This document shows, piece after piece, positions 19,744 through 41,165 of a DNA stretch of 64,000 nucleotides. The translations under genes were made by a program, and so were the position numbers. Numbering within the stretch: the stretch's first letter is position 1; every line of letters starts with the position of its first letter. The notes beneath the pieces are model-generated. The model was not told where the DNA came from. It was given only the letters and a program-made list of their open reading frames with translations, and ran no database searches. Source of the DNA: Escherichia coli (lineage in GTDB: Bacteria > Pseudomonadota > Gammaproteobacteria > Enterobacterales > Enterobacteriaceae); NCBI RefSeq assembly GCF_050920415.1, contig NZ_CP169309.1, one strand, 5' to 3'.

Positions 19744-20754
19744 TTAGATATGGTTAACGATTTCTTTAATCAGCGGCGGTCCTTTAAAAATAAAACCAGA
19801 ATAAATTTGCACCAGTGAGGCCCCCGCAGCAATCTTTTCACGCGCAGCGATAACCGAGTCAATGCCGCCAACACCGATGATCGGTAAGCGACCGTTTAAT
19901 TCCTGAGACAAACGGCGAATAATTTCGGTGCTTTTTAACTGTAGCGGACGACCACTTAAGCCCCCAGTTTGATCGCAATTTTTCATACCCTGTACCAAAG
20001 AACGATCGAGCGTGGTATTGGTTGCAATAACGCCATCAATATTATGGCGAACTAAACTATCGGCAACCTGGATCAATTCTTCTTCAGAAAGATCCGGCGC
20101 GATCTTCACTGCGATCGGCACATATTTATGGTGCATCGCTTGCAAATCATTTTGCTTATTTTTAATCGCGGTTAAGAGATCATCCAGCGCTTCGCCATAT
20201 TGCAGTGTGCGTAGTCCTGGGGTATTCGGCGATGAAATATTGATGGCGATATATCCCGCATAAGCATAGATTTTTTCCATACAAATCAGATAGTCATCTT
20301 TACCCTGCTCCACCGGCGTATCTTTATTTTTGCCGATGTTAATACCCAGGACGCCATCATAATGGGCTTTTTTTACGTTCTCTACGAGGTTATCAACGCC
20401 AAGATTATTAAAGCCCATACGGTTGATCAAACCTTCGGCATCTACCAGACGAAAGAGACGCGGCTTGTCATTACCTGGCTGTGGACGTGGCGTGACGGTA
20501 CCGATCTCGATAGATCCAAACCCCATCGCGCCTAACGCGTCAATGCACTCCCCGTCTTTATCAAGACCGGCTGCCAGACCAAGCGGATTTTTAAACGTCA
20601 GGCCCATGCAGTTAACAGGTTTCGCAGGCACTTTCTGCCGCACCAGTGCTTCAAACGGCGTTCCTGTAATACGGCGTAATTGCTGAAAAGTAAACTCATG
20701 AGCGCGCTCTGGATCGAGCTGGAAAAGGGCTTTACGAACGAAGGGGTAGTACAT
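19744..20754 (-). CDS. pyrD: dihydroorotate dehydrogenase (quinone)
   Basis: 336 aa from [21 protein letters not shown]... Confidence 0.95.
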
Positions 20755-20839
20755 GAACTCTCCTGGATTCCCGGTGTGCAAACCGGGGGCGTATTATGTG
20801 CGAGTTCGGACCAAAAGGGAATTGACCTGCGGCAAAAAA

Positions 20840-26329: not shown

Positions 26330-27031
26330 TTACGATTTACAGTTGAGTTGCGGCGTTTCCGCCCCGTAGTCATTGATGGTTCGGTACGTTACGCGACTGT
26401 TTTGAGCACCCTTTGGCAGAGGGAATTGGTATTTATCAAATGGGGAGATCATTTGATTTTTAACTACTTTTCCACCTATTTTCAGGTCTGTCAGGGTAAT
26501 GAAATAAGGTGTTGGGTTACTGACCGTAACTATGTCAGCTGACGAAGTGCAACGCAGTTTCGCCGGAGCCTCGGCTAAGGGATACGCTAAACCTTTTGGT
26601 CGCCAGAAAAGTTTGATGACGCTTTGTGTGGCAATCTTCAGGGTATTGCCTTCTTCCCGCTTCGTTGTTGAAGGGACTGCCCGTACGCTGGTGAAGAAAA
26701 GAGTTTCTCTGTCTTTCGCCAATGGCGCACCAATGTACATAATGCGTAACAGATTCTCATTTGCCGGATTCAAGACAAATAGCGGTGGTGTTATAATAAA
26801 ATCCGCTGATTTTTTATTAACTGGTGTCATCACCCAAGACTGAATAAGATAAGAAACATCCGGACTGGTGTTACGTACACCAAGTGAAATTTGCTCTTCA
26901 CCTTCTGAATAAACAAGACGTGTTGCTGCAAGTCCAATCCCGCCTTTACCTGCCGCCCATGCGGATGAACAGCTAAGTAATATTGCTGTTAAACTTACGG
27001 TCACAATTCCCTTTGTTATGCAAGTTTTCAT
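26330..27031 (-). CDS. elfD: periplasmic fimbrial chaperone ElfD
   Basis: 233-aa PapD-like chaperone. Confidence 0.9.
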   Translation of the reverse strand: MKTCITKGIVTVSLTAILLSCSSAWAAGKGGIGLAATRLVYSEGEEQISLGVRNTSPDVSYLIQSWVMTPVNKKSADFIITPPLFVLNPANENLLRIMYIGAPLAKDRETLFFTSVRAVPSTTKREEGNTLKIATQSVIKLFWRPKGLAYPLAEAPAKLRCTSSADIVTVSNPTPYFITLTDLKIGGKVVKNQMISPFDKYQFPLPKGAQNSRVTYRTINDYGAETPQLNCKS

Positions 27032-27113
27032 ATATAGTCACTCTTAAAAAATATGAATGTCCCCTCCAGAACACTGGAGGGGGACTAATTAATAAAACAA
27101 TTAATGTTTTATA

Positions 27114-27653
27114 TTAATAATAGTTAATATGGAAGTTTGTTACCGCATTAACATTACCTGAAGTGGCTTTACCCGTAGCGATATAATCAACTTTAAAGGT
27201 CAACGTCTGATCTCCATTCTGCAACAAAATGTTCCCGGTTTCTGTGTCTGGCTTGATGGTCGTTGTGCCATCATTCATGTACATTTGCAGGGCCACGTTT
27301 GTAGCAGCATCAGAAGAGGCCTGATTAGCAAACGCTGTAATCTGCGTAGTATCCGCAGTGCCATTAAAGGTGAACGTTGCATTTTTTGTTACGGTAATAT
27401 CACAATCTGTTAATTCGATTGGCACATCAGTTTGTACCCCAGATACCTGGCCATTGCTTTGCAACTTCGTAGCACTAACATCTGGCAAAGTCACCACGGA
27501 ATCTTTCATCGCAGCTACCAGCGTACACGCTGGGGCAATGACTTTACCATTAAATGTTACTGAGCCATCCGTGATAGCATTATCATCAGCAGCCATAACA
27601 CTGGACGTTGCACATACCACAGTTATAAACGCCGTCAATACACTTTTTTTCAT
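27114..27653 (-). CDS. elfA: major fimbrial subunit ElfA
   Basis: 179 aa from MKKSVLTAFITVVCATSSVMA...; ends in a Tyr-rich C-terminus (HINYY). Confidence 0.85.
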   Translation of the reverse strand: MKKSVLTAFITVVCATSSVMAADDNAITDGSVTFNGKVIAPACTLVAAMKDSVVTLPDVSATKLQSNGQVSGVQTDVPIELTDCDITVTKNATFTFNGTADTTQITAFANQASSDAATNVALQMYMNDGTTTIKPDTETGNILLQNGDQTLTFKVDYIATGKATSGNVNAVTNFHINYY

Positions 27654-28008
27654 CGTTATCATCCTGATCTTTTCGTAAATATGATAATGCCTTTAAATGA
27701 CATTAGACTTAATAATAACAATAACTGTCCGCCATTTAAATCAAGCATACTTAATCCAATAAGTGACAAATCGTTAATTTATAGATTTCATGAATATATT
27801 CTTATTGCCTGAACGAGTAATTCATTGATTCAACATCGAATGAACATCCAATAAATAAATACACGTGATATATATCCCTCAATCCTTAGTTTATTTTTAG
27901 AAAAAGATACACAAATTTTATATTTGGCATTTTCTTGTCTTTCCGACAAACTGACAGAATTGTTATCAAAGTAAAGAATAAAAGAACAGTTGGTTATAAG
28001 GAGGGAGT
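27654..28008. promoter_or_regulatory. AT-rich divergent control region between elfA and ssuE
   Basis: about 355 bp that is visibly AT-rich with A/T tracts. Confidence 0.5.
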
Positions 28009-28584
28009 ATGCGTGTCATCACCCTGGCGGGGAGTCCTCGTTTTCCTTCTCGCTCCAGTTCTTTGCTGGAATATGCGCGGGAAAAACTGAATAACCTGGA
28101 TGTCGAGGTTTATCACTGGAATCTGCAAAACTTCGCCCCGGAGGATCTGCTCTATGCCCGTTTCGATAGTCCGGCCCTGAAAACTTTTACCGAACAGCTG
28201 CAACAGGCCGATGGGTTAATTGTCGCCACACCTGTGTATAAGGCCGCCTATTCCGGAGCGCTGAAAACCCTGCTCGATCTGCTGCCAGAACGTGCGTTGC
28301 AAGACAAAGTGGTACTGCCGCTGGCAACGGGCGGTACAGTGGCTCACCTTCTGGCGGTCGATTACGCGCTTAAACCGGTATTAAGCGCGCTGAAAGCCCA
28401 GGAGATCCTGCACGGCGTGTATGCCGATGACTCACAGGTGATTGATTACCAACATAAACCACAGTTCACGCCGAATCTACAAACCCGACTTGATGCCGCG
28501 CTCGACACCTTCTGGCAGGCGCTGCACCGCCGCGATGTCCAGGTTCCTGACCTTCTGTCTCTGCGAGGTAACGCCCATGCGTAA
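28009..28584 (+). CDS. ssuE: NAD(P)H-dependent FMN reductase SsuE
   Basis: 191 aa MRVITLAGSPRFPSRSSSLLEYAR...; SD aaggaggga upstream. Confidence 0.95.
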   Translation: MRVITLAGSPRFPSRSSSLLEYAREKLNNLDVEVYHWNLQNFAPEDLLYARFDSPALKTFTEQLQQADGLIVATPVYKAAYSGALKTLLDLLPERALQDKVVLPLATGGTVAHLLAVDYALKPVLSALKAQEILHGVYADDSQVIDYQHKPQFTPNLQTRLDAALDTFWQALHRRDVQVPDLLSLRGNAHA

Positions 28585-32248: not shown

Positions 32249-32445
32249 GCCGGATGTGGCGCACAAAACCAGCGGTTTCAACGGATTGTAGGCCTGATAA
32301 GACGCGTCAAGCGTCGCATCAGGCATTTGGGCACGGCTGCCGGATGCGGCGTGAACGCCTTATCCAGCCTACAAAACCAGCATTTTCAACGGACTTGTAG
32401 GCCTGATAAGACGCGTCAAGCGTCGCATCCGGCATTTGGGCTCAA
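32249..32445. repeat. REP/BIME cluster between convergent ssuB and pepN
   Basis: two near-identical ~68-bp units (32265-32332 and 32372-32441) separated by the REP-type sequence gccggatgcggcgtgaacgccttatccagcctac. Confidence 0.85.
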
Positions 32446-35328: not shown

Positions 35329-36531
35329 ATGACACAATTCGCTTCTCCTGTTCTGCACTCGTTGCTGGATACAGATGCTTATAAGTTGCATATGCAGCAA
35401 GCCGTGTTTCATCACTATTACGATGTGCATGTCGCGGCGGAGTTTCGTTGCCGAGGTGACGATCTGCTGGGTATTTATGCCGATGCTATTCGTGAACAGG
35501 TTCAGGCGATGCAGCATCTGCGCCTGCAGGATGATGAATATCAATGGCTCTCAGCCCTGCCTTTCTTTAAAGCCGACTATCTTAACTGGCTACGCGAGTT
35601 CCGCTTTAACCCGGAACAAGTCACCGTGTCCAACGATAATGGCAAGCTGGATATTCGTTTAAGCGGCCCGTGGCGTGAAGTCATCCTCTGGGAAGTTCCT
35701 TTGCTGGCGGTTATCAGTGAAATGGTACATCGCTATCGCTCACCGCAGGCCGACGTTGCGCAAGCCCTCGACACGCTGGAAAGCAAATTAGTCGACTTCT
35801 CGGCATTAACCGCCGATCTTGATATGTCGCGCTTCCATCTGATGGATTTTGGCACCCGCCGCCGTTTTTCTCGCGAAGTACAAGAAACCATCGTTAAGCG
35901 TCTACAACAAGAATCCTGGTTCGTAGGCACCAGTAATTACGATCTGGCGCGTCGGCTTTCCCTCACGCCAATGGGAACACAAGCACACGAATGGTTCCAG
36001 GCACATCAGCAAATCAGCCCGGACCTTGCCAACAGCCAGCGAGCTGCACTTGCTGCCTGGCTGGAAGAATATCCTGACCAACTTGGCATTGCGTTAACCG
36101 ACTGTATTACCATGGATGCGTTCCTGCGAGATTTCGGCGTAGAATTTGCCAGCCGCTATCAGGGCCTGCGTCATGACTCTGGCGACCCGGTTGAATGGGG
36201 CGAAAAAGCCATTGCACATTATGAGAAGCTGGGAATTGATCCGCAGAGTAAAACGCTGGTTTTCTCTGACAATCTGGATTTACGCAAAGCGGTTGAGCTA
36301 TACCGGCACTTCTCCTCCCGTGTGCAATTAAGTTTTGGTATTGGGACTCGCCTGACCTGCGATATCCCCCAGGTAAAACCCCTGAATATTGTCATTAAGC
36401 TGGTGGAGTGTAACGGTAAACCGGTGGCGAAACTTTCTGACAGCCCTGGCAAAACTATCTGCCACGATAAAGCGTTTGTTCGGGCGCTGCGCAAAGCGTT
36501 CGACCTTCCGCATATTAAAAAAGCCAGTTAA
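35329..36531 (+). CDS. pncB: nicotinate phosphoribosyltransferase
   Basis: 400 aa from [24 protein letters not shown]...; ORF-track start at 35281 is an extension. Confidence 0.95.
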
Positions 36532-36699
36532 TATCATCAGGGAGCTAATCGGCTCCCTTTTTTTACCTTTAATTCCGAAATCTTTCGCTGCATTTGCGAA
36601 TTCTGCTTGTCTGATTGCAGATGCCAGGTAACATAGGTATCCCCCCATTTACGGGTGGACAAGTGTTTATTTTTTCCGACTATTAACAGAGAGAATATT

Positions 36700-38100
36700 A
36701 TGAGCGTTGTGCCTGTAGCCGACGTACTCCAGGGCCGCGTAGCCGTTGACAGCGAAGTCACCGTGCGCGGATGGGTACGTACCCGCCGAGATTCAAAAGC
36801 TGGCATCTCCTTCCTCGCCGTTTATGACGGTTCCTGCTTTGATCCTGTACAGGCTGTCATCAATAATTCTCTGCCCAATTACAATGAAGACGTTCTGCGT
36901 CTGACCACCGGTTGCTCGGTCATTGTGACGGGTAAAGTCGTGGCATCGCCAGGCCAGGGGCAACAATTTGAAATTCAGGCCAGCAAGGTTGAAGTTGCTG
37001 GTTGGGTTGAAGATCCAGACACTTACCCGATGGCGGCAAAACGCCACAGCATTGAGTATCTGCGTGAAGTCGCTCACCTGCGTCCGCGCACAAACCTGAT
37101 TGGTGCCGTCGCGCGCGTTCGCCATACGCTGGCGCAGGCGCTGCATCGCTTCTTTAACGAGCAGGGATTCTTCTGGGTTTCAACGCCACTGATTACTGCG
37201 TCTGATACCGAAGGGGCTGGCGAAATGTTCCGCGTTTCTACGCTGGATCTGGAAAACCTGCCGCGTAACGATCAGGGCAAAGTGGATTTCGACAAAGACT
37301 TCTTTGGTAAAGAGTCTTTCCTGACCGTATCTGGCCAGTTGAACGGTGAAACCTACGCTTGCGCATTGTCCAAAATTTATACCTTCGGCCCGACTTTCCG
37401 TGCTGAAAACTCCAACACCAGCCGTCACCTGGCGGAATTCTGGATGCTGGAGCCGGAAGTGGCGTTTGCTAACCTGAACGATATCGCGGGTCTGGCTGAA
37501 GCCATGCTGAAATATGTCTTCAAAGCGGTTCTCGAAGAACGCGCTGACGACATGAAATTCTTCGCTGAACGCGTAGATAAAGATGCCGTTTCACGTCTGG
37601 AACGCTTTATTGAGGCCGATTTCGCGCAGGTGGATTACACCGACGCAGTGACCATTCTCGAAAACTGCGGCAGGAAGTTTGAAAACCCGGTTTACTGGGG
37701 CGTCGATCTCTCTTCTGAGCATGAGCGTTATCTGGCAGAAGAACACTTTAAAGCACCGGTAGTGGTTAAAAACTATCCGAAAGATATTAAAGCGTTCTAT
37801 ATGCGCCTTAACGAAGACGGTAAAACCGTTGCGGCTATGGATGTTCTGGCTCCGGGCATCGGTGAAATCATTGGTGGTTCTCAGCGTGAAGAGCGTCTGG
37901 ACGTGCTGGACGAGCGTATGCTGGAAATGGGCCTGAATAAAGAAGATTACTGGTGGTATCGCGATCTGCGTCGCTACGGTACTGTTCCGCATTCCGGTTT
38001 CGGTCTTGGTTTTGAACGCCTGATTGCTTACGTAACTGGCGTGCAAAACGTGCGTGATGTGATTCCGTTCCCACGTACTCCGCGTAACGCCAGCTTCTAA
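36700..38100 (+). CDS. asnS: asparagine--tRNA ligase
   Basis: 466 aa from [14 protein letters not shown]...; class II aaRS features (FRAE, GGSQRE). Confidence 0.95.
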
Positions 38101-38113
38101 TTTAGCGTCTTCA

Positions 38114-38142
38114 AGAGCCAGCACCCGCTGGCTCTTTTTTTA
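38114..38142 (+). terminator. rho-independent terminator of asnS
   Basis: stem agagccagcacccgctggctct followed by T7. Confidence 0.8.
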
Positions 38143-38479
38143 TCCTTTCTGTCAAGTTATCTGTTTGTTAAGTCAAGCAATCTATTTGCAACCCCGCCAT
38201 AACGATCATCCTGTTACGGAATATTACACTGCAACATTTGCGCACAAAAACTAATCCGCATTCTTATTGCGGATTAGTTTTTTCTTAGCTGATAGCACAA
38301 TTTTCATACTATTTTTTGGCGTTCTGGATGTCTGAACGAGGATTTAGTGTCAGGTCGATAAAGTTTCTATCAGAAACAAAATTTCCTTTTAGTTAATTTA
38401 AATATAAGGAAATCATATAAATAGATAAAAATTGCTGTAAATATCATCTCGCTTCTAAGGAAATATGACGGTGTTCACA

Positions 38480-38701
38480 AAGTTCCTTAAATTTTACTTT
38501 TAGTTACATATTTTTTCTTTTTGAAACCAAATCTTTATCTTTGTAGCACTTTCACGGTAGCGAAACGTTAGTTTGAATGGAAAGATGCCTGCAGACACAT
38601 AAAGACACCAAACTCTCATCAATAGTTCCGTAAATTTTTATTGACAGAACTTATTGACGGCAGTGGCAGGTGTCATAAAAAAACCATGAGGGTAATAAAT
38701 A
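38480..38701 (+). promoter_or_regulatory. ompF promoter with OmpR-binding region and about 110-nt 5' UTR (micF target)
   Basis: AT-rich tttacttttagttacatattttttctttttgaaaccaaatctttatctttgtagcactttcacgg resembles the OmpR F1-F3 boxes as I recall them; exact boundaries not verified. Confidence 0.55.
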
Positions 38702-39790
38702 ATGATGAAGCGCAATATTCTGGCAGTGATCGTCCCTGCTCTGTTAGTAGCAGGTACTGCAAACGCTGCAGAAATTTATAACAAAGATGGCAACAAAGTA
38801 GATCTGTACGGTAAAGCTGTCGGTCTGCATTATTTCTCCAAGGGTAACGGTGAAAACAGTTACGGTGGCAATGGCGACATGACCTATGCCCGTCTTGGTT
38901 TTAAAGGGGAAACTCAAATCAATTCCGATCTGACCGGTTATGGTCAGTGGGAATATAACTTCCAGGGTAACAACTCTGAAGGCGCTGACGCTCAAACTGG
39001 TAACAAAACGCGTCTGGCATTCGCGGGTCTTAAATACGCTGACGTTGGTTCTTTCGATTACGGCCGTAACTACGGTGTGGTTTATGATGCACTGGGTTAC
39101 ACCGATATGCTGCCAGAATTTGGTGGTGATACTGCATACAGCGATGACTTCTTCGTTGGTCGTGTTGGCGGCGTTGCTACCTATCGTAACTCCAACTTCT
39201 TTGGTCTGGTTGATGGCCTGAACTTCGCTGTTCAGTACCTGGGTAAAAACGAGCGTGACACTGCACGCCGCTCTAACGGCGACGGTGTTGGCGGTTCTAT
39301 CAGCTACGAATACGAAGGCTTTGGTATCGTTGGTGCTTATGGCGCCGCTGACCGTACCAACCTGCAAGAAGCTCAACCTCTTGGCAACGGTAAAAAAGCT
39401 GAACAGTGGGCTACTGGTCTGAAGTATGACGCGAACAACATCTACCTGGCAGCGAACTACGGTGAAACCCGTAACGCTACGCCGATCACTAATAAATTTA
39501 CAAACATCAGCGGCTTCGCCAACAAAACGCAAGATGTTCTGTTAGTTGCGCAATACCAGTTCGATTTCGGTCTGCGTCCGTCCATCGCTTACACCAAATC
39601 TAAAGCGAAAGACGTAGAAGATATCGGTGATGTTGATCTGGTGAACTACTTTGAAGTGGGCGCAACCTACTACTTCAACAAAAACATGTCCACCTATGTT
39701 GACTACATCATCAACCAGATCGATTCTGACAACAAACTGGGCGTAGGTTCAGACGACACCGTTGCTGTGGGTATCGTTTACCAGTTCTAA
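38702..39790 (+). CDS. ompF: outer membrane porin F
   Basis: 362 aa [22 protein letters not shown]...; C-terminal Phe. Confidence 0.95.
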
Positions 39791-39815
39791 TAGCACACCT
39801 CTTTGTTAAATGCCG

Positions 39816-39846
39816 AAAAAACAGGACTTTGGTCCTGTTTTTTTTA
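39816..39846 (+). terminator. rho-independent terminator of ompF
   Basis: stem acaggactttggtcctgt followed by T-run. Confidence 0.8.
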
Positions 39847-39974
39847 TGCCTTCCAGAGCAATCTCACGTCTTGCAAAAACAGCCTGCGTTTTCATCAGTA
39901 ATAGTTGGAATTTTGTAAATCTCCCGTTACCCTGATAGCGGACTTCCCTTCTGTAACCATAATGGAACCTCGTC

Positions 39975-41165
39975 ATGTTTGAGAACATTACCGCCGCTCC
40001 TGCCGACCCGATTCTGGGCCTGGCCGATCTGTTTCGTGCCGATGAACGTCCCGGCAAAATTAACCTCGGGATTGGTGTCTATAAAGATGAGACGGGCAAA
40101 ACCCCGGTACTGACCAGCGTGAAAAAGGCTGAACAGTATCTGCTCGAAAATGAAACCACCAAAAATTACCTCGGCATTGACGGCATCCCTGAATTTGGTC
40201 GCTGCACTCAGGAACTGCTGTTTGGTAAAGGTAGCGCCCTGATCAATGACAAACGTGCTCGCACGGCACAGACTCCGGGTGGCACTGGCGCACTACGCGT
40301 GGCTGCCGATTTCCTGGCAAAAAATACCAGCGTTAAGCGTGTGTGGGTGAGCAACCCAAGCTGGCCGAACCATAAGAGCGTCTTTAACTCTGCAGGTCTG
40401 GAAGTTCGTGAATACGCTTATTATGATGCGGAAAATCACACCCTTGACTTCGATGCACTGATTAACAGCCTGAACGAAGCTCAGGCTGGCGACGTAGTGC
40501 TGTTCCATGGCTGCTGCCATAACCCAACCGGTATCGACCCTACGCTGGAACAATGGCAGACACTGGCACAACTTTCCGTTGAGAAAGGCTGGTTACCGCT
40601 GTTTGACTTCGCTTACCAGGGGTTTGCCCGTGGTCTGGAAGAAGATGCTGAAGGACTGCGCGCTTTCGCGGCTATGCATAAAGAGCTGATTGTTGCCAGT
40701 TCCTACTCTAAAAACTTTGGCCTGTACAACGAGCGTGTTGGCGCTTGTACTCTGGTTGCTGCTGACAGTGAGACCGTTGATCGCGCATTCAGCCAAATGA
40801 AAGCGGCGATTCGCGCTAACTACTCTAACCCTCCAGCACACGGCGCTTCTGTTGTTGCCACCATCCTGAGCAACGATGCGTTACGTGCGATTTGGGAACA
40901 AGAGCTGACTGATATGCGCCAGCGTATTCAGCGTATGCGTCAGTTGTTCGTCAATACGCTGCAGGAAAAAGGCGCAAACCGCGACTTCAGCTTTATCATC
41001 AAACAGAACGGCATGTTCTCCTTCAGTGGCCTGACAAAAGAACAAGTGCTGCGTCTGCGCGAAGAGTTTGGCGTGTATGCTGTTGCTTCTGGTCGCGTAA
41101 ACGTGGCCGGGATGACACCAGATAATATGGCTCCGCTGTGCGAAGCGATTGTGGCAGTGCTGTAA
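39975..41165 (+). CDS. aspC: aspartate aminotransferase
   Basis: 396 aa [36 protein letters not shown]... Confidence 0.95.

Follow-up and report, generated by a model that had tools for sequence, protein, structure and literature searches.

The AT-rich asnS-ompF spacer as the ompF control region in an Escherichia coli genome

The DNA analysed was a single stretch of 64,000 nucleotides from Escherichia coli (assembly GCF_050920415.1, contig NZ_CP169309.1), hereafter the window; all positions are counted from its first letter. The genes asnS and ompF lie next to each other in this window, and both calls agreed with how RefSeq annotates K-12 and another strain that has a 100% identical spacer. 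The intergenic spacer occupies positions 38101-38701 (601 bp). An earlier note on this DNA had reported a gap of about 560 bp between the two genes: the gap is real, but the smaller figure (559 bp, when counted from 38143) was obtained because the asnS terminator at 38113-38142 had been excluded. The GC content of the spacer was 34.3%, versus 50.8% for the whole window, and was the lowest among all 601-bp tiles of the window, in keeping with the AT-rich control region that had been described. All features are listed in Table 1.

Table 1. Features of the asnS-ompF locus, in order of position in the window. Positions relative to transcription are counted from A38593 (+1).
Feature	Position in window	Strand	Position relative to start	Description
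asnS	36700-38100	+		NCBIfam AsnS equivalog, 710.6 bits (cut-off 414)
asnS intrinsic terminator	38113-38142	+		10-bp G+C-rich stem (38113-38122 / 38127-38136), 4-nt loop, T-run
OmpR site F4, distal repressing	38213-38232	+	-380..-361	GTTACGGAATATTACACTGC; one mismatch to RegulonDB F4
Second inverted repeat	38246-38282			Perfect 15-bp repeat, 7-nt loop, A5/T6 flanks
25-codon ORF	38370-38447	-		MIFTAIFIYLYDFLIFKLTKRKFCF; at the reported location of C0240
Distal conserved block	38398-38424		-195..-169	TTAAATATAAGGAAATCATATAAATAG; candidate binding site of a DNA-bending protein
Sigma-70-like promoter match	38412-38441	-		TTTACA, 18-nt spacer, TATGAT; 10/12
CRP-like box	38464-38479	+	centred at -121.5	TATGA-CGGTGT-TCACA
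OmpR site F1, highest-affinity activating	38493-38512	+	-100..-81	TTTACTTTTAGTTACATATT; one mismatch to K-12
OmpR site F2	38513-38532	+	-80..-61	Exact match to K-12 F2
OmpR site F3	38533-38552	+	-60..-41	Adjoins the -35 region; exact match to K-12 F3
ompF core promoter	38558-38592	+		Weak -35 TAGCGA (38558-38563), -10 AAAGAT (38581-38586)
ompF 5' untranslated leader	38593-38701	+		109 nt, from K-12 start numbering
MicF pairing site	38685-38712	+		Spans the Shine-Dalgarno GAGGG (38688-38692) and the start codon (38702-38704)
ompF	38702-39790	+		NCBIfam OmpF equivalog, 790.8 bits (cut-off 583)

The spacer was aligned end to end with the asnS-ompF spacer of K-12 MG1655 (602 bp). The resulting alignment of 642 columns, which takes in 20 bp of coding flank on either side, contained 21 substitutions and one 1-nt indel; the identity of the spacer to a K-12 derivative was 96.7%. 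The transcription start was inferred at A38593, because F1-F4 then fall at their published coordinates and the T6 run at 38511-38516 falls at -82 to -77. This run crosses the F1/F2 junction and is of wild-type length; deletion of one T from the -82 to -77 run renders OmpF constitutive (PMC6458713). The core promoter downstream of F3 carried no SNP in 12 E. coli and had a cross-genus identity of 0.81. A scan with a generic sigma-70 consensus gave no plus-strand match at the ompF promoter, as expected, since this promoter is activator-dependent.

For the OmpR sites, the RegulonDB sequences of K-12 ompF F1-F4 were used as references (PMC3945435 Table S5). All four mapped to the spacer at the expected spacing, with one mismatch each in F4 and F1 and none in F2 and F3, as the multi-site OmpR control put forward in the earlier note would predict. 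Sites F1, F2 and F3 form three contiguous 20-bp units (38493-38552), and the gap between F4 and F1 is 260 bp, which is also the published distance (PMC3050692). In F4, the T of K-12 is replaced by C at 38229; in F1, the G of K-12 is replaced by A at 38502, a position that is tri-allelic within E. coli.

The 14 characterised sites listed for other genes (PMC3945435 Table S5), with no ompF site among them, were used to make a 20-bp OmpR matrix, which was run over both strands of the whole 64 kb (~128,000 positions). F1 was the best match of the window (18.5 bits), and the best match outside the spacer had 14.1 bits. Against the local AT-rich background, F1 scored 13.1 bits (the spacer maximum) versus 8.1 ± 1.65 in dinucleotide shuffles (P ~0.0075). 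The F1 substitution leaves the matrix score unchanged (13.09 versus 13.04), and the F4 substitution reduces a score that was already weak. The scores of F2, F3 and F4 (1.5-4.6 bits; F4: 2.75 bits) were within chance for AT-rich DNA, so that these three putative sites were identified by orthology only and not by motif. The repeated tttac/gaaac-type motifs that had first drawn attention to the region are present, with nine TTTAC, GAAAC or GTTAC pentamers in the spacer, but the enrichment over dinucleotide shuffles (5.0 ± 2.0) is marginal (P ~0.05) and is weak evidence alone. As a check, the matrix scan was informative for F1, which was significant, but not for the other three sites. Such a scan is in any case a poor test for refutation, because the sequence specificity of OmpR is low: its sites are degenerate and AT-rich and have no strong consensus (PMC3945435). 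The real evidence for the putative OmpR sites is their orthology to footprinted K-12 sequence, and the comparison with the published ompF promoter agreed in the sites, in their spacing and in the end-to-end K-12 orthology.

The same scores can be read in another way, namely that the OmpR-like motifs are chance occurrences in AT-rich DNA and that the spacer is passive, for example H-NS-silenced, with no multi-site architecture. This would be in line with the degeneracy of OmpR sites, with F2, F3 and F4 scoring in the range of the shuffles, with pentamer counts just marginally over expectation, and with another AT-rich spacer of the window (27000-28000) that also draws many matrix matches. Chance does not, however, account for F1 topping the window under a matrix devoid of ompF sites, for the correspondence of the sites to footprinted K-12 sites, or for a cross-genus conservation that is focused on the sites and their spacing and is not spread evenly across the AT-rich DNA. 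The orthology and the footprint pattern already contradict a passive spacer, which we regard as extremely improbable, and the multi-site OmpR control region is the reading followed below.

For the comparison across genera, relatives of AsnS were searched for (80 loci). A porin gene follows asnS in Enterobacterales. The Enterobacteriaceae spacer is usually ~600 bp long (range 544-786 bp, 13 loci measured), and spacers of ~300 bp were found in Serratia, Pectobacterium, Hafnia, Erwinia and similar genera, which belong to other Enterobacterales families. Both F4 and high-osmolarity repression are absent from Yersinia ompF (PMC3050692), and the ~300-bp spacers outside Enterobacteriaceae agree with this published absence of both.

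A phylogenetic footprint was prepared by alignment of 14 Enterobacteriaceae spacers from twelve genera. Conserved blocks were located at -195 to -169, -121 to -103, -93 to -69 (F1b/F2a) and -55 to -24 (F3b and the -35 element), and further 3' at -21 to +53 and +57 to +83 (taking in the -10 element, the start and the leader) and at +92 to +118 (MicF site). The TTTGTAGCACTTT core of F3 was invariant or nearly so across genera. The GTTAC of F4a was kept in 11/14 sequences, as an island within ~45% identical DNA, and the DNA between F4a, the distal block and F1b was likewise ~45% identical. In the sequences that keep GTTAC, the distance from F4a to F1b was 287-290 bp; the distance from the distal block to F1b was exactly 98 bp in 14/14 sequences. 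Such spacing would be needed if the OmpR complex were looped and its bend fixed; F4, the distal block and F1 keep their mutual distances to 0-3 bp despite sequence drift, which lends modest support to the looping model.

The earlier note had also attributed ompF control to OmpR together with IHF, and to micF pairing. The OmpR sites and the MicF duplex described below uphold this picture, but the IHF part was unconfirmed by motif: no exact WATCAANNNNTTR (the IHF consensus) occurs in the spacer, and one-mismatch matches to WATCARNNNNTTR were found at 38158 and 38525, a number at chance level. An involvement of IHF at ompF was reportedly described by Tsui, Helu and Freundlich in 1988; published footprint coordinates of IHF at ompF were not found in literature searches. 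One IHF footprint presumably lies near -170 to -180 of ompF. On the minus strand the distal conserved block reads TATGATTTCCTTA, which is IHF-like with two mismatches, and its mean identity over 11 other genera was 0.82, versus 0.34-0.46 in the flanks.

The CRP-like box just upstream of F1 fits the consensus (TGTGA-N6-TCACA-like) at 9/10 positions, and two such matches in 64 kb correspond to chance. Its core TCACAAAGTT was invariant over the 14 sequences, no SNP fell in the box among 12 E. coli, and DNase I footprinting of Y. pestis ompF has shown CRP at the equivalent position (-131 to -109; PMC3050693). Because of this conservation and of the Yersinia footprint, 38464-38479 is probably a CRP site.

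Downstream of the promoter, the long leader mentioned in the earlier note was borne out, its length of 109 nt being based on the K-12 transcription start. The K-12 leader is 110 nt long because its A-run is one base longer (A8, versus A7 at 38677-38683 in the window). In the predicted fold, the leader forms a long, bulged stem-loop whose closing stem pairs GACACC (38604-38609) with GGUGUC (38669-38674), a structure that has been described before (PMC1489923). The stability of the fold alone was not significant (z = -1.28 versus shuffles). Of 23 Enterobacterales sequences, 21-22 preserve the closing stem, and one compensatory change was seen in it; the cross-genus identity of the leader was 0.88. 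No Rfam model matched in a scan of positions 36500-40200 (E<=1), and the leader does not correspond to any Rfam family.

For the MicF target, nucleotides 1-33 of K-12 micF were paired with every 60-nt segment of the window (6394 segments). The best duplex of the window fell at 38685-38712, on the ribosome-binding site and start codon of ompF (-27.1 kcal/mol; background -9.3 ± 3.4), as the proposed micF pairing would predict. This duplex runs from just 5' of GAGGG through ATGATGAAGCG. The target was invariant in the 14 Enterobacteriaceae sequences and identical to K-12 over the duplex; the A that is missing from the leader sits just upstream of it. Full-length MicF had also been paired with 160-nt targets: these duplexes were loop-ridden and uninformative, with an equally strong background, and the 33-nt 5' seed was therefore used instead. 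The locus matches the known MicF-ompF antisense pairing (RF00033; Delihas and co-workers, PMC1489923) in that the target CATGAGGGTAATAAATAATGATGAAGCG is the same as in K-12 and that MicF nucleotides 1-33, including the conserved 5' GCUAUCAUCAUUA, pair with it. It differs from the known system in the A-run, one base shorter just upstream, and in holding only the target, micF being elsewhere: an Rfam scan of the 64-kb window at the gathering threshold detected neither MicF nor any other ompF-related family.

Taken with the K-12 orthology, these features identify the spacer as the E. coli ompF promoter-regulatory region and mRNA leader (probability about 0.95). The ompF control region of the window is an already known, textbook regulatory region, and its confirmation brings no new biology because it is among the best-characterised bacterial regulatory regions. 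The practical value of the present work is in annotation: the asnS terminator, F4, F1-F3, the promoter, the leader and the MicF site can all be marked to the base. What the analysis yielded is sequence features, with their positions and conservation; that proteins bind here, that a loop forms and that ompF is regulated accordingly in this strain is inferred, and the mechanism is the one established for K-12, carried over to the window by orthology.

In order from 5' to 3', the spacer holds the asnS terminator, the weak distal F4, ~260 bp of mostly unconstrained AT-rich DNA with one conserved block at a constant distance from F1, the CRP-like box, the tandem F1-F2-F3 abutting a weak -35 element, the transcription start and a structured leader of 109 nt, whose 3' end (ribosome-binding site and start codon) would be the target of the trans-encoded sRNA MicF. 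At low osmolarity, the small amount of phosphorylated OmpR would fill F1-F2(-F3), RNA polymerase would be recruited and ompF would be transcribed. At high osmolarity, with more phosphorylated OmpR, F4 would also be filled, a loop would form between F4 and F1-F3, and the promoter would be shut. MicF, made elsewhere in the genome, would pair with the ribosome-binding site and block translation.

The closest known system is K-12 ompFp with its sites F1-F4 (Huang, Schieberl & Igo 1994; Harlocker et al. 1995; Yoshida et al. 2006; cited in PMC3945435, PMC13304067). The locus is the same (601 bp in the window versus 602 bp in K-12), with F2, F3, the core promoter, the CRP-like box and the MicF site identical, and with the same 260-bp distance from F4 to F1 and the same T6 run at -82 to -77. 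The differences of the window from K-12 lie mostly in the unconstrained distal half; one is in F1, one is in F4, and one is A7 versus A8. The ompF promoter of Yersinia pestis (PMC3050692, PMC3050693) likewise has tandem F1-F2-F3 and a CRP site at about -120, just upstream of F1, where the window has its CRP-like box. Unlike the window, which has a full Enterobacteriaceae-type spacer of ~600 bp with F4, the Y. pestis promoter has no F4, no distal half of the spacer and no high-osmolarity repression.

Two terminator-like hairpins were found in the spacer. The asnS terminator was detected by a terminator scan; over the 14 Enterobacteriaceae sequences, 96.9% of its cells were paired, and two pairs showed compensatory changes, in 5 sequences each. 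The second inverted repeat (38246-38282) has a predicted folding energy of -21.9 kcal/mol and resembles an intrinsic terminator whichever strand is read. It was perfect in only 3/12 E. coli haplotypes and was degraded in E. albertii and in other genera (56% of cells paired across genera); its left arm was polymorphic in E. coli, and no compensatory changes were found among the sequences compared. As a conserved RNA structure, this repeat was consequently rejected.

The second repeat could instead be a back-up terminator, which would halt read-through from asnS before the ompF control region and would have no part in ompF regulation. Its plus strand offers a perfect 15-bp stem followed by T6; the repeat sits 110 bp 3' of the asnS terminator, ahead of F1-F3. 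The hairpin is, however, downstream of F4, so that it would not insulate the entire control region, and its imperfection in 9/12 E. coli haplotypes and its absence from other genera contrast with the strong conservation of the asnS terminator. We consider a back-up terminator unlikely.

A transcript from the opposite strand has to be weighed as well. In K-12, a tiling-array study (PMC3082872) listed C0240, so named by Tjaden et al., as a transcript or putative small ORF on the opposite strand between ompF and asnS, and this was the single mention found when the literature was searched for small ORFs or sRNAs in the asnS-ompF spacer. The spacer might accordingly hold an opposite-strand gene, either an sRNA or a hydrophobic peptide of 25 residues (C0240), that is transcribed in the direction leading away from ompF and ends at the 38246-38282 hairpin. 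Apart from the tiling-array entry, such a gene could draw on the 10/12 sigma-70-like match on the minus strand (38441-38412), on the 25-codon ORF on the same strand (38447-38370), which was intact in 12/12 E. coli and in E. albertii, and on the strong hairpin downstream, which has a T5 tail on the minus strand.

The details are less favourable to such a gene. The total of sigma-70-like matches was no higher than in shuffles, and the minus-strand -35 element (TTTACA) was kept only in Escherichia. The ORF starts upstream of this sole promoter-like match, and the promoter could therefore not express it; the Shine-Dalgarno of the ORF is also poor. In the 11 other genera, the start codon was absent or stops interrupted the frame. 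Three of the changes within E. coli were nonsynonymous and one was synonymous; in E. albertii, 11/25 residues differed. The stretch 'YLYDFLIF', which is common to other genera, is the distal DNA-level block in that frame. In addition, the left arm of the hairpin is polymorphic with no compensatory changes, and outside E. coli there is no such hairpin; neither the Rfam scan of 36500-40200 nor the K-12 RefSeq annotation holds an entry for the proposed gene. The 25-codon ORF is probably not a conserved gene, and as a conserved small protein it was rejected by the cross-genus and within-species comparisons.

On balance, an opposite-strand gene seems rather unlikely, and we give the same low credence to the further proposal that expression of C0240 would disturb, or serve as a readout of, the looped ompF control region. 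A lineage-specific opposite-strand transcript is possible; a conserved coding function is unsupported. More doubtful still, and quite speculative, is the idea that the distal half in Escherichia has gained a small divergent or antisense unit (C0240, with or without the peptide) ending at a new bidirectional hairpin that lies between F4 and the distal conserved block. Were this true, C0240 transcription through loop-forming DNA could modulate the OmpR-mediated repression of ompF. The ompF control region with its K-12-like architecture remains our reading of the spacer.

Variation within E. coli was assessed in 12 E. coli sequences and in complete genomes. Neither the core promoter nor the CRP-like box held any SNP; the density per 100 bp was 3.7 in the leader, 8 in F1-F3 and 16-25 in unconstrained stretches. 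Searched as exact 60-mers, the window alleles were present in 222 complete genomes for F1, 33 for the F4 neighbourhood and 755 for the A7 leader; the F1, F4 and A-run variants are common natural alleles. Since F1, F4 and the leader A-run are each one base off K-12, quantitative regulation could differ, and we saw no reason in the sequences to expect that these alleles would change regulation.

Across the features examined in the window, nothing was found against the assignment of the spacer to the ompF control region. The spacer was found in 5424/5426 complete E. coli genomes and was at least 99% identical in only 16 of them, and the window therefore carries a rare haplotype of a universal region. 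Host-specific SNP markers have previously been drawn from the asnS-ompF spacer (PMC5007776); together with this use as a host-source marker, the rare haplotype may matter for strain typing, not for mechanism.

Within the ompF control region, conservation of spacing far exceeds that of sequence. In all 14 Enterobacteriaceae sequences compared (the window and loci among L003-L017), the distal block, a conserved stretch upstream of the highest-affinity OmpR site F1, lies precisely 98 bp from the F1b half-site of F1 (window positions 38405 and 38503). Between F4a, the core of the distal OmpR site F4, and F1b, 287-290 bp were counted in those sequences that retain GTTAC at F4a (window positions 38213 and 38503). 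The DNA over which these distances hold is ~45% identical.

The length of the asnS-porin spacer was compared between loci L012, L016, L018-L026 and L029-L033 and loci L003-L017. In Enterobacteriaceae the spacer is usually ~600 bp (range 544-786 bp, with 786 bp in Superficieibacter), versus ~300 bp in Hafnia, Serratia, Pectobacterium, Rahnella, Erwinia and similar genera; because of this difference, the distal half of the spacer, which bears F4, looks Enterobacteriaceae-specific. Downstream, the apical ~21 nt of the leader stem-loop (TTTTTATTGACA...; window 38623-38645) were missing from Enterobacter sp. Ag1 (L008) and likewise from the non-Enterobacteriaceae loci (L018-L025), and the closing stem of the leader and the target site of the sRNA MicF were retained.

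The spacer haplotype of the window is rare within E. coli: just 16 of 5426 complete genomes matched the asnS-ompF spacer (38101-38701) at ≥99% identity, most being at 95-99%. This spacer has served as a host-source SNP marker (PMC5007776). Position 10 of F1 (38502) has three alleles within the species (A, G or T) and the F1b core reads GTCAC instead of GTTAC in E2348/69-like strains (38505), so natural variation exists within the highest-affinity OmpR site itself. In E. coli STEC299 (L090), an intact control region precedes an ompF that is annotated as a pseudogene carrying an internal stop.

A BcfA/ElfA-like fimbrial subunit gene and ssuE are separated by a second spacer of very high AT content (see table). 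When the window was scanned with the OmpR position weight matrix (20 bp, from 14 characterised sites of genes other than ompF), ~10 of the 30 best matches fell at this region, across 27010-27972. The OmpR ChIP-chip targets common to E. coli and Salmonella include elfA (PMC3945435 Table S3). An Rfam scan of the entire window at the gathering threshold returned two matches only, the PyrD leader and naRNA4/CssrE.

Coordinates of additional features in the window
Feature	Position	Strand	Details
PyrD leader	20749-20822	-	Rfam, 97.9 bits
BcfA/ElfA-like fimbrial subunit gene	27114-27662	-	
Second very AT-rich spacer	27663-28008		GC ~30%
ssuE	28009-28584	+	
naRNA4/CssrE	32291-32369	-	Rfam, 82.2 bits

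Upstream of the ompF control region, two gene starts in the mechanical ORF list differ from those annotated in a strain carrying an identical asnS-ompF spacer. For asnS the list gives GTG 36655, versus the equivalent of ATG 36700 in the annotation, and for pncB it gives 35281, versus ~35329.
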